From the IMG/VR virus record IMGVR_UViG_2681813261_000015: 5,567 nt of DNA, one strand, 5' to 3'. This document shows, in pieces, positions 168 to 5,108 of the stretch. Each line of letters begins with the position of its first letter. Position 1 is the stretch's first letter. The notes beneath the pieces were generated by a model, which did not search any database, had not been told where the DNA came from, and saw nothing but the letters and a program-made list of their open reading frames with translations. Source of the DNA: a virus. Lineage: Duplodnaviria; Heunggongvirae; Uroviricota; Caudoviricetes. Both the position numbers and the translations under genes were made by a program.

Positions 168-425
168 TTGAACAACCAGACAATGACTTTTACCCCTGAA
201 CAATTGCGTAAACACGCGCAGGAAATGCTGCGTCATGCTGAACAACTCGAAAAAACGGGCATAACAAAAGACGCTATCCGTAAAGATATGGTACCCGCGC
301 TTCGGGAACTGATGCAGGCGAAGCATCGCGCACAGAAAGCAGTAGATGAGCTGGTGGACTGTGTGGCAGAGCTGGAAACCAGAGTCGGAAAGTTTGAAAA
401 ACTGGTGCAGGAGGTGCTGCGCTGA
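168..425 (+). CDS. hypothetical small phage protein (nin-region), predicted helical
   Basis: 85-aa ORF starting at TTG 168 with GGAG at 157-160 seven nt upstream; alternative in-frame ATG at 183 has no obvious SD. Stop TGA 423-425 overlaps the rusA ATG at 425-427. No family recognised from memory. Confidence 0.55.
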   Translation: MNNQTMTFTPEQLRKHAQEMLRHAEQLEKTGITKDAIRKDMVPALRELMQAKHRAQKAVDELVDCVAELETRVGKFEKLVQEVLR

Positions 426-799
426 TGCGCCATGAGTTTATTTTACCTTATCCGCCGACGGTGAATACTTACTGGCGACGTCGTGACAACACATATTTTG
501 TATCAAAAGCCGGTGAGCGTTATCGCCGGGATGTGGCGCTTATTGTCCGTCAGCAGCGACTGAAATTAAGCCTGTCCGGAAGACTGGCGATAAAGATTAT
601 TGCAGAGCCACCGGATAAGCGCCGTCGTGACCTGGACAATATCCTGAAAGCACCACTGGATGCACTGACACATGCGGGAGTGTTAATGGACGATGAGCAG
701 TTTGATGAAATCAATATCGTTCGTGGTCAGCCAGTATCTGGTGGACGTCTGGGGGTGAAGATTTACCCCATAATGCATGAAGAGCAGGTCAAAAAATGA
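425..799 (+). CDS. rusA: crossover junction endodeoxyribonuclease RusA (Holliday junction resolvase)
   Basis: 124-aa product carrying LPYPPTVNTYW, RRRDLDN and DALTHAG...DDEQ motifs, which match the RusA family as I recall E. coli RusA (..LPWPPSNNRYY.., ..[20 protein letters not shown]..). Stop TGA 797-799 overlaps the Q start ATG 796-798. Confidence 0.9.
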   Translation: MRHEFILPYPPTVNTYWRRRDNTYFVSKAGERYRRDVALIVRQQRLKLSLSGRLAIKIIAEPPDKRRRDLDNILKAPLDALTHAGVLMDDEQFDEINIVRGQPVSGGRLGVKIYPIMHEEQVKK

Positions 800-1617
800 A
801 ACTGGAAGATTTACCGAAATACTACTCCCCAAAATCCCCTTGCCTGACCGATGCATCGGCCTCAACGTCAAAAGATGCGCTGAGTATCACTGATGTGATG
901 GCCGCGCAGGGCATGACACAGAATCGGGCTGAGATGGGGTTTTCTGCGTTCCTGGGGAAAATGGGCATCAGTATGAATGACAGGGCGCGGGCAACAGAAT
1001 TACTGGCAGATTATGCACTCAGTCGGTGCGATCGTGTGGCGGCGTTGAGAAAACTTCCGGCAGAAATAAAACCGGTAGTGATGCGCATTATGGCTTCGTA
1101 CGCTTTTGAGGATTATGCCCGCAGCGCAGCGAGTAAAAAGCAGTGCCCTTGTTGCTATGGGGAAAAATTTATTGAAAGCGTAGTTTTTACAAACAAGGTC
1201 CAGTATCCGGATGGTAAGCCGCCGGTATGGGCAAAGTGTACGAAAGGTGTGTATCCGTCTTACTGGGAAGAATGGAAAAAAGTCAGGGAGGTGGTAAAAG
1301 TTGCCTGTCCGGAGTGTGGCGGAAAGGGTGAGGTTTCCACCGCCTGTAAGGATTGCCGTGGGCGTGGTGTCGCCATTCATCGTGAAGAGTCGGTAAAACG
1401 TGGTATGCCTGTTATCAGAGACTGCCAGCGTTGTGGTGGTCGTGGCTATGAAAGACTACCATCAACGGAGGCATTTAATGCTATATGCGAGGTGACAAAC
1501 CAGATAACACGCGCGTCATGGGAAAAAACAGTTAAGAAATTTTATGATGCGCTGGTGACCCGGTTTGATATTGAAGAAGCATGGGCTGAGCGGCAGTTAA
1601 AAAAGGTAACTAGGTAA
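796..1617 (+). CDS. Q: late-gene antitermination protein Q (lambda Q family, enlarged variant)
   Basis: 273-aa product. The N-terminal half aligns with lambda Q as recalled (MKLEDLPKYYSPKSP...SITDVMAAQGM... versus MRLESVAKFHSPKSP...SGTDVMAAMGM...), and the C-terminus carries the conserved ...LYDALV.. region. Four CxxC pairs are present (CPCC, CPEC, CKDC, CQRC). It sits directly upstream of a pR'-like promoter. Confidence 0.88.
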   Translation: MKLEDLPKYYSPKSPCLTDASASTSKDALSITDVMAAQGMTQNRAEMGFSAFLGKMGISMNDRARATELLADYALSRCDRVAALRKLPAEIKPVVMRIMASYAFEDYARSAASKKQCPCCYGEKFIESVVFTNKVQYPDGKPPVWAKCTKGVYPSYWEEWKKVREVVKVACPECGGKGEVSTACKDCRGRGVAIHREESVKRGMPVIRDCQRCGGRGYERLPSTEAFNAICEVTNQITRASWEKTVKKFYDALVTRFDIEEAWAERQLKKVTR

Positions 1618-2189: not shown

Positions 2190-3248
2190 ATGCTTAATAC
2201 TGTAAAAATATCCAGTTGTGAGTTAATCAACGCCGACTGCCTGGAATTTATCCGGTCGTTACCCGAAAATTCTGTTGACCTGATAGTCACGGACCCGCCG
2301 TACTTTAAAGTGAAGCCTGAGGGCTGGGATAACCAGTGGAAGGGCGACGATGATTACCTGAAGTGGCTGGACCAGTGTCTGGCGCAGTTCTGGCGGGTGC
2401 TGAAACCTGCCGGAAGTCTTTACCTGTTCTGTGGTCATCGCCTGGCATCTGATATCGAAATCATGATGCGTGAACGCTTCAGTGTGCTGAACCATATTAT
2501 CTGGGCGAAGCCGTCCGGACGCTGGAACGGATGCAACAAGGAAAGCCTGCGGGCGTATTTCCCCGCCACAGAGCGCATTCTGTTCGCGGAACATTATCAG
2601 GGGCCGTATCGTCCGAAAGATGCCGGGTATGCGGCGAAGGGCAGTGCACTGAAACAGCATGTGATGGCCCCGCTGATTTCTTACTTTCGTGATGCGCGAG
2701 CTGCCCTGGGGATAACGGCAAAACAGATTGCAGATGCCACAGGAAAGAAAAACATGGTGTCGCACTGGTTCAGTGCCGGTCAGTGGCAGTTGCCGAATGA
2801 AAGCGATTATCTGAAATTACAGGCGCTGTTTGCCCGGGTGGCAGAAGAGAAGCATCGGCGTGGTGAACTGGAAAAGCTCCACCACCAGCTGGTGGATACG
2901 TATACCTCACTGAACCGGCAGTATGCGGAGCTGCTGAGTGAATATAAACATCTGCGGCGGTATTTTGGCGTGACGGTGCAGGTGCCGTATACCGATGTGT
3001 GGACGCATAAACCGGTGCAGTTCTATCCCGGGAAACATCCGTGCGAAAAACCGGCAGAAATGCTGCAGCAGATAATCAGCGCTAGCAGTCGTCCGGGTGA
3101 CCTGATTGCAGATTTTTTCATGGGGTTGGGTTCGACAGTGAAAGCGGCACTGGCGCTCGGGCGTCGTGCAATTGGCGTTGAGCTGGAGACTGAACGTTTT
3201 GAGCAGACGGTTCGGGAAGTACAGGATTTAGTCAGCCAGAACGGATGA
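2190..3248 (+). CDS. DNA methyltransferase, beta-class (N6-adenine/N4-cytosine family; DPPY motif suggests N6-adenine)
   Basis: 352-aa product with catalytic motif IV (VTDPPYF) near the N-terminus and AdoMet motif I (DFFMGLGST) near the C-terminus, i.e. the circularly permuted beta-class order. A ~150-aa central insert contains an HTH-like segment (ITAKQIADATGK) and is probably the target-recognition domain. No restriction endonuclease gene is adjacent. Confidence 0.88.
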   Translation: MLNTVKISSCELINADCLEFIRSLPENSVDLIVTDPPYFKVKPEGWDNQWKGDDDYLKWLDQCLAQFWRVLKPAGSLYLFCGHRLASDIEIMMRERFSVLNHIIWAKPSGRWNGCNKESLRAYFPATERILFAEHYQGPYRPKDAGYAAKGSALKQHVMAPLISYFRDARAALGITAKQIADATGKKNMVSHWFSAGQWQLPNESDYLKLQALFARVAEEKHRRGELEKLHHQLVDTYTSLNRQYAELLSEYKHLRRYFGVTVQVPYTDVWTHKPVQFYPGKHPCEKPAEMLQQIISASSRPGDLIADFFMGLGSTVKAALALGRRAIGVELETERFEQTVREVQDLVSQNG

Positions 3249-3288: not shown

Positions 3289-3364
3289 GGCCCTTTAGCT
3301 CAGTGGTGAGAGCGAGCGACTCATAATCGCCAGGTCGCTGGTTCAAATCCAGCAAGGGCCACCA
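3289..3364 (+). tRNA. ileZ: tRNA-Ile2 (anticodon CAU, ileX/ileZ-like; formally Met by anticodon)
   Basis: Hand-folded cloverleaf: acceptor GGCCCTT/AAGGGCC, D-stem GCTC/GAGC, anticodon loop CTCATAA, T-arm GCTGG-TTCAAAT-CCAGC, encoded CCA. Near-identical in layout to E. coli tRNA-Ile2 as recalled. Symbol assigned from the Q-tRNA gene order known from Stx phages. Confidence 0.85.
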
Positions 3365-3371
3365 TCACATA

Positions 3372-3448
3372 CCGCCATTAGCTCATCAGGAAAGAGCGCC
3401 AGCCTTCGAAGCTGGCTGCGCGGGGTTCAAGTCCCCGATGGCGGTCCA
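3372..3448 (+). tRNA. argN: tRNA-Arg (anticodon UCG)
   Basis: Hand-folded cloverleaf: acceptor CCGCCAT/ATGGCGG, D-stem GCTC/GAGC, anticodon stem CCAGC/GCTGG with loop CTTCGAA, T-arm CGGGG-TTCAAGT-CCCCG, encoded CCA. Symbol assigned by gene order only. Confidence 0.8.
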
Positions 3449-3461
3449 TTATCTGCATCAT

Positions 3462-3538
3462 GCGTTGTTAGCTCAGCCGGACAGAGCAATTGCCTTCTAA
3501 GCAATCGGTCACTGGTTCGAATCCAGTACAGCGCGCCA
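3462..3538 (+). tRNA. argO: tRNA-Arg (anticodon UCU, decodes rare AGA)
   Basis: Hand-folded cloverleaf: acceptor GCGTTGT/ACAGCGC (one G-U pair), D-stem GCTC/GAGC, anticodon stem ATTGC/GCAAT with loop CTTCTAA, T-arm ACTGG-TTCGAAT-CCAGT, encoded CCA. Symbol assigned by gene order only. Confidence 0.8.
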
Positions 3539-3648
3539 TATTCATTCTTCCAGATTCCTTCCGGCAGAGCCTTATACTGAAATATACCTGGCTCAGGATA
3601 TTGTTGAAAATATTTTATGTTTGTCAAAAATAAAAGTTCTGTTAAGTA

Positions 3649-4002
3649 TTGATTGAGTGTTTGTTATACGGTCTAATGGTTTTTTCAGCATTAAATATTT
3701 ATCATTCATATGGTGTGGGTAGAGTGAATATTGATGAGGCGTCGGGGTGTTTCATCCTTAGGCAGCGTATTGATATAGTCAATGCAGCACGAGCAAAGGC
3801 CTTCAGCCGTTTGACAGTTTTGTTCTGTACTCCTGATCGTCTTTCGGGAAGAGACGTTATTATTCTGAATAGTGATGCTATACAGAGGGTTTGCGATGAG
3901 TTCATGGTTGCTAATTCAGAATTATTTGCTCTTGTTCAGGAGTACAACAGAATAGCCAGGACCTGTGGTATGGATGAACTTCGGATTACTCATCTGGGGT
4001 AG
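3649..4002 (+). CDS. orphan hypothetical protein in AT-rich cargo DNA (start uncertain)
   Basis: 117-aa ORF whose first codon is TTG at 3649; first in-frame ATG is at 3676. No convincing SD at either. The region is visibly AT-rich compared with the flanking phage genes. No domain recognised. Confidence 0.35.
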   Translation: MIECLLYGLMVFSALNIYHSYGVGRVNIDEASGCFILRQRIDIVNAARAKAFSRLTVLFCTPDRLSGRDVIILNSDAIQRVCDEFMVANSELFALVQEYNRIARTCGMDELRITHLG

Positions 4003-4322
4003 ATACATATCTGGATTATCACCTGTTACGGTAAAAAGTGATTGCTTACTGTTTTTGTGAATGGCATTGCAGCAGCCGGATAATGTCAGTGCTGGCTGAC
4101 GGTGTGCTGGTGGCGGGTGTGGTGGTTGTTGCTTTCCCGTTGCTGAAAAAGAAAACGCCAGACTGTTAGCCGGGTATCAGTTAGCGGGAGAAATTTTTAA
4201 ATACTTCACAATTCAGGCGGTTGACTGTTGTCTGGTTTGCGGGGAGTTTGTTAAAAGAAACTGGCATGGTGAATCCCCCTGTGCGGAGGGGCAATCAGCG
4301 AGTAGGTATATGGGATAATCGC

Positions 4323-4420
4323 GGATTCAGGTGCTGGTACTGAATTCACCGGGAGGCACCCGGCATCATGCAATGGCACATAGCGCCACTCTCCAGCCCT
4401 CTCCGGAGGGGCTTTTCTGT
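4323..4420 (+). ncRNA. candidate small structured RNA, unit A of a tandem paralogous array
   Basis: Hairpin 1 at 4323-4347 (8-bp stem with one G-U, 9-nt loop); hairpin 2 at 4349-4363 (CCGGG/CCCGG); terminator stem-loop CCCTC-TCCG-GAGGG at 4397-4410 followed by CTTTTCTGT. An extended -10-like element TGgGATAAT (4311-4319) would place the transcript start near 4326. No ORF of 60 aa or more overlaps. Confidence 0.35.
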
Positions 4421-4547
4421 GCCGGATACATCACAGTTTCTGGAACCTTAGGTACTACAGTATCAGTCAGGGTGCTATATTTTCAGATGTGATGAAAGCC
4501 TGTCAGCAGGCAGGGCGTATCGGAAATGACCCAGTAGAGAAAACGTT

Positions 4548-4635
4548 GACTCAGATACCGGTGCTGAGTTACCGGGAAACCGGCATCACATGACCGCTAT
4601 CCTTCCAGGCCCATCCGCTCCGGTGGGCCTTTTTA
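4548..4635 (+). ncRNA. candidate small structured RNA, unit B (paralogue of unit A)
   Basis: Hairpin 1' at 4548-4570 (7-bp stem, 9-nt loop); hairpin 2' CCGG-GAAA-CCGG at 4572-4583 (GNRA tetraloop); strong terminator GGCCCA...TGGGCC at 4608-4629 followed by TTTTTACTG. The arms align with unit A and show one compensatory base-pair change (T-A in A, C-G in B). No clear promoter upstream. Confidence 0.35.
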
Positions 4636-4676
4636 CTGCAGAAAACAGGTTCCCCGTTAAATGCTATGTTGCTCAC

Positions 4677-4757
4677 AATTCAGNNNNNNNNNNNNNNNNN
4701 NNNNNNNNNNNNNNNNNNNNCCCTCTCCGGAGGGGCTGTTTATATTGATTTTGTCAG
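4677..4757 (+). ncRNA. candidate unit C of the same array, core masked by N-run
   Basis: Starts with AATTCAG (4677-4683), the same left arm as hairpin 1 of unit A. It is preceded by an extended -10-like TGcTATGTT (4662-4670). After the Ns comes CCCTCTCCGGAGGGGC (4721-4736), identical to the unit A terminator hairpin, followed by a T-rich tail. Confidence 0.25.
4684..4720. other. run of 37 ambiguous bases (N); masked or unresolved sequence
   Basis: Literal n characters in the input. Falls inside the repeat array, consistent with an assembly gap or collapse caused by the repeats. Confidence 0.95.
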
Positions 4758-4769
4758 ATGTGAGTAAAC

Positions 4770-4803: not shown

Positions 4804-5108
4804 CATATTTGCAGAGTGCAACGGTTATTAAAGCATTCATTCAATACGTTATCTGTATTTGTAGGGCATTCCTGGCTATTTTTGATTGAATTCCAGAATG
4901 TTTTATTGAATGGTACTACGTTGTAAATGGTTACAGGTAGCACTTTGTTATTGAGCATGATGCCTGTGTGAGTCAGTGTAAATATACTTTCAGGAGGTAA
5001 GAAAGCATCCGATTGATACCAGATTATTAATTTTATTTTACTCCATATGACTGAAAAAGATATTCCGCATGATGGCTGGATAACTGTATCAATCACAATC
5101 CACTTCAT
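4773..5108 (-). CDS. orphan hypothetical protein in AT-rich cargo DNA
   Basis: 111-aa ORF with ATG start (complement of 5106-5108) and a good SD, AAGGAA, 5 nt upstream on the minus strand (complement of 5114-5119). AT-rich codon usage. Convergent with the upstream cargo. No domain recognised. Confidence 0.4.

Follow-up and report, generated by a model that had tools for sequence, protein, structure and literature searches.

A conserved 92-codon reading frame at the stxA position of a lambdoid Escherichia coli prophage

The initial annotation of the window (the whole stretch of 5,567 nucleotides analysed here) raised the question of what is encoded directly after a tRNA cluster, at the position that stxA occupies in Stx phages. 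It described an AT-rich orphan ORF with an uncertain start, running from TTG 3649 (117 aa) or ATG 3676 (108 aa) to a stop ending at 4002, and offered three options: a real small protein, what is left of a degraded gene, or AT-rich DNA that is non-coding and possibly bound by H-NS. The ORF was present as described. Our overall best explanation, which we hold with high confidence, is that it contains a real 92-aa cargo gene of the PHROG 2873 family starting at GTG 3724.

The stx slot in the window

In the window, which covers the late-regulatory part of a lambdoid E. coli prophage (Table 1), a cargo region of lower GC content lies between the tRNAs and the lysis genes. The ORF adjoins the tRNAs, its start lying 111 nt past the end of the third tRNA (position 3538). 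Its assignment to the stxA slot was borne out by the Stx2a phage WGPS2, which has the backbone small ORF, methylase, ileZ, argN, and argO in common with the window and then carries stx2A, starting 92 nt 3' of argO. As with stxAB, no other cargo comes between ileZ-argN-argO and the 92-aa gene, Q, a small wHTH-like ORF, and a methylase lie further upstream, and the gene would be part of the late pR' transcript. It differs from stxAB in having no sequence or fold relation and no RIP domain, the window protein being 92 aa long, predicted to be helical, probably cytoplasmic, and apparently devoid of an N-terminal hydrophobic segment. The reported lack of similarity to Stx A agreed with the Pfam searches, which returned no ribosome-inactivating or Stx A match for the ORF; the RIP domain PF00161 gave no match at E ≤ 1 with either the 117-aa or the 92-aa translation. 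The ORF had also been called the only one of at least 60 aa at the start of the cargo, which is correct for the plus strand but not overall, given antisense ORFs of 67 aa (Table 1) and 66 aa (3427–3627).

Directly 3' of Q, at 1618–1724, a short region contains a hairpin and T run (cccgccgccgagcgggtttttt, at approximately 1700–1722, read by eye). It looks like a pR' leader followed by the tR' terminator, the site of action of Q, and Rfam returned only a chance-level "Trp_leader" match there.

Table 1. Features of the window, with coordinates counted from its first nucleotide.
Feature	Position	Strand	Evidence or remark
RusA	425–799		
Q antiterminator	796–1617		Pfam Antiterm, E = 6e-55
Winged-helix-like ORF, 65 aa	1842–2039		
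N6/N4 DNA methyltransferase	2190–3248		
tRNA cluster: ileZ-type CAU ("Met"/Ile), Arg-UCG, Arg-UCU	3289–3538	+	ARAGORN, Rfam
In-frame 5' "extension"	3649–3723	+	AT-rich; most likely untranslated leader
Antisense ORF, 67 aa	3702–3905	-	Not a gene; by-product of wobble-locked frame
Ribosome-binding region GGUGUGGGU	3706–3720	+	3-nt gap to GTG 3724; anti-SD duplex -3.8 kcal/mol
Conserved 92-aa protein gene, GTG start, TAG stop	3724–4002	+	PHROG 2873 member
DUF3927 membrane peptide gene, 43 aa	4038–4169	+	PGAP name in locus L001; phrog_1470 ("TciB-like"), E = 7.8e-13; 35 nt past the 92-aa gene
STnc100-family sRNA	4235–4424	+	RF02076, 122.5 bits; own terminator at 4395–4413
Second, weaker tandem STnc100 copy	4463–4636	+	30 bits, below gathering score; terminator at 4607–4630
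IraM-like gene, 111 aa	4773–5108	-	phrog_4407, E = 3e-72; PGAP "anti-adapter protein IraM" in near-identical locus L001
DUF1737 ORF, 62 aa	5354–5542	+	L001 counterpart flagged as pseudogene by PGAP (missing C-terminus)

The conserved core and its start site

We compared the window with two diverged lineages, represented by ETEC4079 (L006) and E. coli O43 RM10042 (L005), the core of the latter being identical to that of the metagenomic loci L003 and L004. A comparison across lineages was used because population genetics within the window lineage had no power, 1162 of its 1186 genomes being at least 99% identical. Nucleotide identity among the three lineages was 67–72%. From the common GTG to the common stop, the 279-nt alignment was free of gaps in the window, L006, and L005/L003/L004, and flanking indels began within 20 nt upstream and within 5 nt downstream of this block. 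The differences at codon positions 1, 2, and 3 numbered 19, 19, and 39; 24, 23, and 43; and 24, 18, and 40 in the lineage comparisons, third-position changes thus being approximately twice as frequent as those at either other position. The ratio dN/dS was 0.25–0.26, with dS of about 1 (Nei-Gojobori, three lineages), and the sense frame was the only one of six that was open in all three lineages. Under neutral simulation, the ORF stayed open in 8–15% of trials per pair, and survival of the open frame is therefore supportive, albeit weakly discriminating and not decisive on its own. As judged from these sequence comparisons, the 92-codon frame is under purifying selection across diverged orthologues.

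The suspicion attached to the start was justified, and both starts first considered are probably wrong, the conserved start being GTG 3724. Neither TTG 3649 (best duplex -0.9 kcal/mol) nor ATG 3676 (-2.5 kcal/mol, 14-nt gap) has a convincing SD, as had been recognised, because the 75-nt extension in front of the core is a leader of 31% GC, which carries a frameshift in RM10042 and does not exist in ETEC4079. Among the three candidate starts, anti-SD pairing was strongest for GTG 3724, although it is modest there too (Table 1). The homologous site of L006 is a canonical CAGGAGU (-6.9 kcal/mol) with AGGAG 3–4 nt before the GTG; the SD-region block aligned across all lineages, and SDs were weak in L005 and in the plasmid homologues. 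The 92-aa protein that PGAP annotates as the ETEC4079 orthologue (WP_001017777.1) begins at the equivalent GTG, and the starts of distant relatives fall within about 3 residues of this position. The GC content steps from 31% (3539–3723) to 44% (3724–4002) exactly at 3724; the description of the ORF as AT-rich consequently applies to the leader and not to the core.

A longer product of 108 or 117 aa, from ATG 3676 or TTG 3649, would add a hydrophobic extension (LLYGLMVFSALNIY) that could serve as a membrane anchor or signal, and we consider it distinctly unlikely. No stop interrupts the extension in the window lineage or in L003 and L004, its nucleotide sequence is conserved between the window and L005, and numerous database entries of 108, 117, and 118 aa, as well as the 108 positions of the PHROG 2873 profile, would agree with it. 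These lengths arose because gene callers chose the longest ORF, and the profile and many entries differ from the 92-aa protein by a spurious N-terminal extension of 16–26 residues. Against the longer product, the extension of RM10042 is frameshifted and runs into a stop codon, and L003, L004, and L005 have identical cores yet non-triplet indels between their extensions. In ETEC4079, the upstream sequence is unrelated, no extension exists, and the frame starts at the GTG. Moreover, the Met of ATG 3676 is replaced by Asn in two homologues (P0014 and P0015), and the distant relatives are all 91–95 aa long; the lack of an SD at either upstream start and the GC boundary at 3724 also argue against it. 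The search for frameshifts or stops at homologous loci, proposed as a test of the frame, was accordingly positive for the 5' extension at 3649–3723 only, the core at 3724–4002 being intact. The extension is most likely an untranslated leader that is open by chance in the window lineage; no significant conserved RNA structure was detected in it (z = -0.55, covariation term +0.24). We are very confident that 3724–4002 is a genuine gene with its start at GTG 3724, coding status and start site being taken jointly.

Coding status, family, and distribution

The ORF is not an orphan. It matched the PHROG 2873 profile at E = 3.8e-70 (ORF residues 10–117 against profile positions 1–108 of 108), and homologues with identities as low as about 33% were found. 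Positions 17–108 of the same profile were matched by the 92-aa cores of L005 (1e-46) and L006 (4.6e-45). The window protein is 63% identical to the lineage of WP_001017777.1 (92 aa), as measured on P0018/P0019, which are 95–97% identical to that accession. More distant homologues with 33–41% identity included P0023 (95 aa, Citrobacter freundii complex), P0024, and P0028. E. coli IncF plasmids encode PGAP-annotated homologues of 91–94 aa that are about 35% identical to the window protein, among them WP_000662184.1 (plasmid, 91 aa), with the conserved motifs in common. These homologues of Citrobacter prophages and IncF plasmids are 91–95 aa long with ATG starts, several of which have good SDs. 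In an 11-member alignment, M1, R23, V32, P37, N64, Y74, and N75 were invariant and both termini coincided within a few residues; the motifs conserved in the family are FSRLxV..[CS][TP]PD[RK] and AN.EL..LV.EYN.

In the reading as non-coding AT-rich, possibly H-NS-bound DNA, the frame would be open by chance, and the 31% GC of the leader, the lack of a PGAP gene among the approximately 100 records listed, and the 8–15% of neutral trials that kept a frame open are compatible with that view. The core itself has 44% GC and is gap-free in three lineages while its flanks carry indels, its changes are wobble-biased with a dN/dS of 0.25, and same-length homologues with 33–41% identity and their own starts occur in other genera and on plasmids. 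For coding status, these distant homologues of the same length are, as far as sequence can tell, the decisive addition. The non-coding reading is already largely refuted, and we give it very little probability.

The possibility that the ORF is the remnant of a larger degraded gene, such as a decayed toxin or other cargo in the stx slot, seems just as improbable. The surrounding prophages are often decayed, as illustrated by pseudogenes and IS66 in locus L001 and by a C-terminal 44-aa fragment in L007. Every intact member, however, is 91–95 aa long with coincident N- and C-termini, and the 1.84 billion cluster representatives contained no longer homologue that matched well, the best full-length matches being 91–122 aa. 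The only long matches were marginal (P0035 and P0036, approximately 700 aa; E = 1.6e-4 and 3.2e-4, in 10 and 6 separate stretches). The AlphaFold2 (AF2) model is a complete compact fold, and Pfam gave no RIP or Stx match. For the core, the conserved frame and its relatives thus reject both the remnant and the non-coding options. The remaining option, a real small protein, is supported by a core frame free of indels and stops in three lineages, by dN/dS of about 0.25, and by relatives of the same length.

A gene on the opposite strand (the 67-aa ORF, or a 38-aa ORF at 3593–3709 that RAST called in phage mEp460) has a negligible probability: the antisense frame reads through 95 aa without a stop in L006, and its apparent dN/dS is 0.26–0.42, but it contains two stops in the window core and two in L005, the antisense ORF has no PHROG match, and distant homologues are recognisable in the sense frame only. 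The low antisense dN/dS is expected because the antisense frame has its wobble positions in common with the sense frame. Since such a phase-locked frame mimics the signal, dN/dS cannot assign the strand by itself, and the strand was decided by stop codons and distant homologues.

The ORF matched 17 database clusters, and an exhaustive HMM search retrieved 23 representatives among 1.84 billion clusters; the PHROG 2873-type family is therefore real but very narrow. Weak cross-matches to phrog_4827, an uncharacterised family of about 96 aa from phage tail regions, were obtained at E values from 4e-5 to 3e-7, and its members P0033 and P0034 matched the family profile at 3e-5 to 1e-4, P0034 lying among tail genes outside the Q-lysis region. 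Either a remote relationship or coiled-coil bias may account for these matches. Neither the protein itself nor profiles yielded a meaningful match in sequence searches of Pfam, NCBIfam, PADLOC, and PDB, and PADLOC-DB contained no model for the three 92-aa variants or the DUF3927 neighbour. Every public source labels family members as "hypothetical protein".

The window lineage occurs in 1186 of 5426 complete E. coli genomes (about 22%); over the ORF, identity reaches at least 99% in 1162 of them. None of the approximately 100 records listed, drawn from approximately 1,180 carrier genomes, has a PGAP feature over the ORF. Only 1 of 50,697 phage records contained the gene (mEp460_ev081), which suggests that most carriers are prophages that are either cryptic or seldom isolated. 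Databases already contain the sequence at 97–98% identity, as a member of a catalogued uncharacterised family; the new points are modest, namely the correct start, the purifying selection, and the missing PGAP calls in the records listed. The finding is ordinary in kind and will not surprise a phage genomicist. It does call for a correction of annotation, given that PGAP leaves the locus blank in the records listed, and that a false N-terminus of 16–26 residues appears in the PHROG profile and in the output of other gene callers. The corrected start at GTG 3724 matters for expression, tagging, and structural work. The gene is a widespread uncharacterised accessory gene in a slot for virulence cargo, and, with its simple, confidently predicted fold, it could be screened for interaction partners at low cost.

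Predicted fold, neighbours, and possible function

The 92-aa protein has a mass of 10.4 kDa, a pI of 5.7, and a GRAVY of 0.13, which is not strongly hydrophobic. Two AF2 runs gave pLDDT values of 83.6 and 87.6 and pTM values of 0.71 and 0.75. The model is an antiparallel two-helix hairpin (H3–34 and H50–81) capped by a short β-hairpin (β39–41/44–46), and the most conserved motif, FSRLxV..[CS][TP]PD[RK], is carried on this β-hairpin. The protein is accordingly predicted to be acidic and soluble, with a helix/β-hairpin/helix structure. No enzymatic, DNA-binding, or membrane signature was found in it. Foldseek searches against PDB with the two models and against BFVD returned generic, non-significant hairpins only (best E = 0.05–0.08).

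Two resemblances to known proteins were noted. The topology of the better AF2 model is that of the prefoldin β class, whose members were the top Foldseek PDB matches (TMq 0.68–0.73); the Foldseek E values were 0.05–0.4 (best 0.053) at an rmsd of about 8 Å, and no Pfam prefoldin match was found at E ≤ 1. The setting also differs, being that of bacteria and phages. The modelled likeness to prefoldin is thus a resemblance only and would not place the protein in that class. In prefoldin, the oligomer core is built from the β-hairpins, which offers a lead on what the conserved hairpin of the 92-aa protein may do. TraM of Ti plasmids, ANR/Aar-type negative regulators of AraC proteins, and IraM/IraP are similar in size, in having an acidic helical hairpin, and in their origin from mobile elements. 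TraM (2q0o_C) was among the fold matches of the first AF2 model with a TMt of 0.77, at a non-significant Foldseek E of 0.4. The context also recalls anti-activators, in that one lineage (L005) has the gene directly downstream of an AraC regulator and the window has an IraM-like gene 0.8 kb away. The protein differs from these anti-activators and anti-adaptors in showing no sequence similarity to them in Pfam, NCBIfam, or PDB searches.

The family recurs in the accessory region between Q and the holin, in contexts that varied among the lineages. In the window and in phage mEp460, the order is tRNAs, 92-aa gene, and DUF3927. In the Citrobacter loci (L011–L014), Q and, further on, a tRNA-Thr are followed by the homologue, a TerB-like protein (141 aa), DUF3927, and holin, and the homologue is bracketed by hairpin and T-run motifs that we read by eye as intrinsic terminators. 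A further homologue also lies downstream of Q (L015). The presence of DUF3927 after the gene in the window, mEp460, and Citrobacter suggests that the two form a loose recurring module. In RM10042, the gene lies between an AraC-like regulator and a NanS-p-type esterase; the regulator is a 241-aa YdeO/GadX-like protein (L005 3257–3982) encoded 89 nt upstream. According to the literature, the prophage regulators PsrA, PsrB, and PatE belong to this YdeO/GadX-like AraC class. On the plasmids (L008–L010), the homologue (4486–4761) was always tail to tail with an ORF of 71–80 aa (approximately 4829–5071) that had no Pfam or PHROG match, and in L010 the pair is flanked by two identical IS5 copies near fimbrial genes. 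Support for an anti-activator role was sought in the form of an AraC-like neighbour, but none was found in the plasmid contexts, and such a neighbour is also absent from the window and Citrobacter. Guilt by association is weak because the neighbours differ by lineage (DUF3927, AraC-like regulator, TerB-like protein, or convergent ORF).

The gene belongs to the accessory ("moron") cargo and occupies the slot of the late operon that lies between the Q antiterminator/tRNA cluster and the lysis cassette. Regarding expression, read-through from pR', antiterminated by Q, would transcribe it together with the tRNAs. We infer this mainly Q-dependent late expression because no terminator-like site was found between 3538 and 3724, because of the layout of the slot, and because the rare codons of the gene match the tRNAs; on this layout, co-transcription with the late operon appears somewhat more probable than the opposite. 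The codons AUA, AGA, AGG, CGA, and CGG account for 10 of the 92 codons (7 of 10 Arg and 3 of 9 Ile), roughly twice their share in neighbouring phage genes (4–5%), and are those read by the three tRNAs directly upstream. The adjacent phage tRNAs would thus serve the rare codons of the gene. The stx genes are likewise richer in rare AUA, AGA, and AGG codons than their neighbours. A weak promoter-like site lies at 3604–3631 and, as a promoter of its own, may allow expression in the lysogen. We found no report of expression or translation of the 92-aa gene in the searchable literature.

As for the mechanism, the two-helix antiparallel coiled coil with its β-hairpin cap might bind, or oligomerise with, another protein in a stoichiometric manner and would not be catalytic. 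The protein would then act like small phage adaptors or anti-activators, possibly together with the DUF3927 membrane peptide. Such a protein-binding adaptor mechanism, suggested by the predicted fold, is a tentative proposal that we think has a lesser chance of being right than wrong. A bolder version, which is unlikely, would make the protein the first known representative of a novel class of helix/β-hairpin/helix adaptors on prophages and plasmids, its conserved TPDR hairpin forming an oligomer that binds a host regulator (a GadX/YdeO/Psr-type AraC activator or a component of the RpoS pathway). If it were true, the stx slot of non-toxigenic lambdoid prophages would be a locus modulating stress response or virulence in approximately 22% of complete E. 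coli genomes.

Several features further downstream are of separate interest. A 2026 preprint ties STnc100 to the PasD sRNAs of Stx-type prophages; this Pas/STnc100 preprint and a review of EHEC regulators cover only the neighbours of the 92-aa gene. A masked run of 37 N (4684–4720) separates the two sRNA copies from the IraM-like gene, and ORFs spanning it are artefacts. The terminator motif of the STnc100 copies (ccctctccggagggg) was seen again at 4721–4737, right past this run, which may hide a third copy. The IraM-like gene, which has 34% GC and lies on the strand opposite to the late operon, is a prophage-borne homologue of RssB anti-adaptors within the cargo region. In the near-identical locus L001, the cargo and lysis region is decayed, with an IS66 insertion and a truncated lysozyme.
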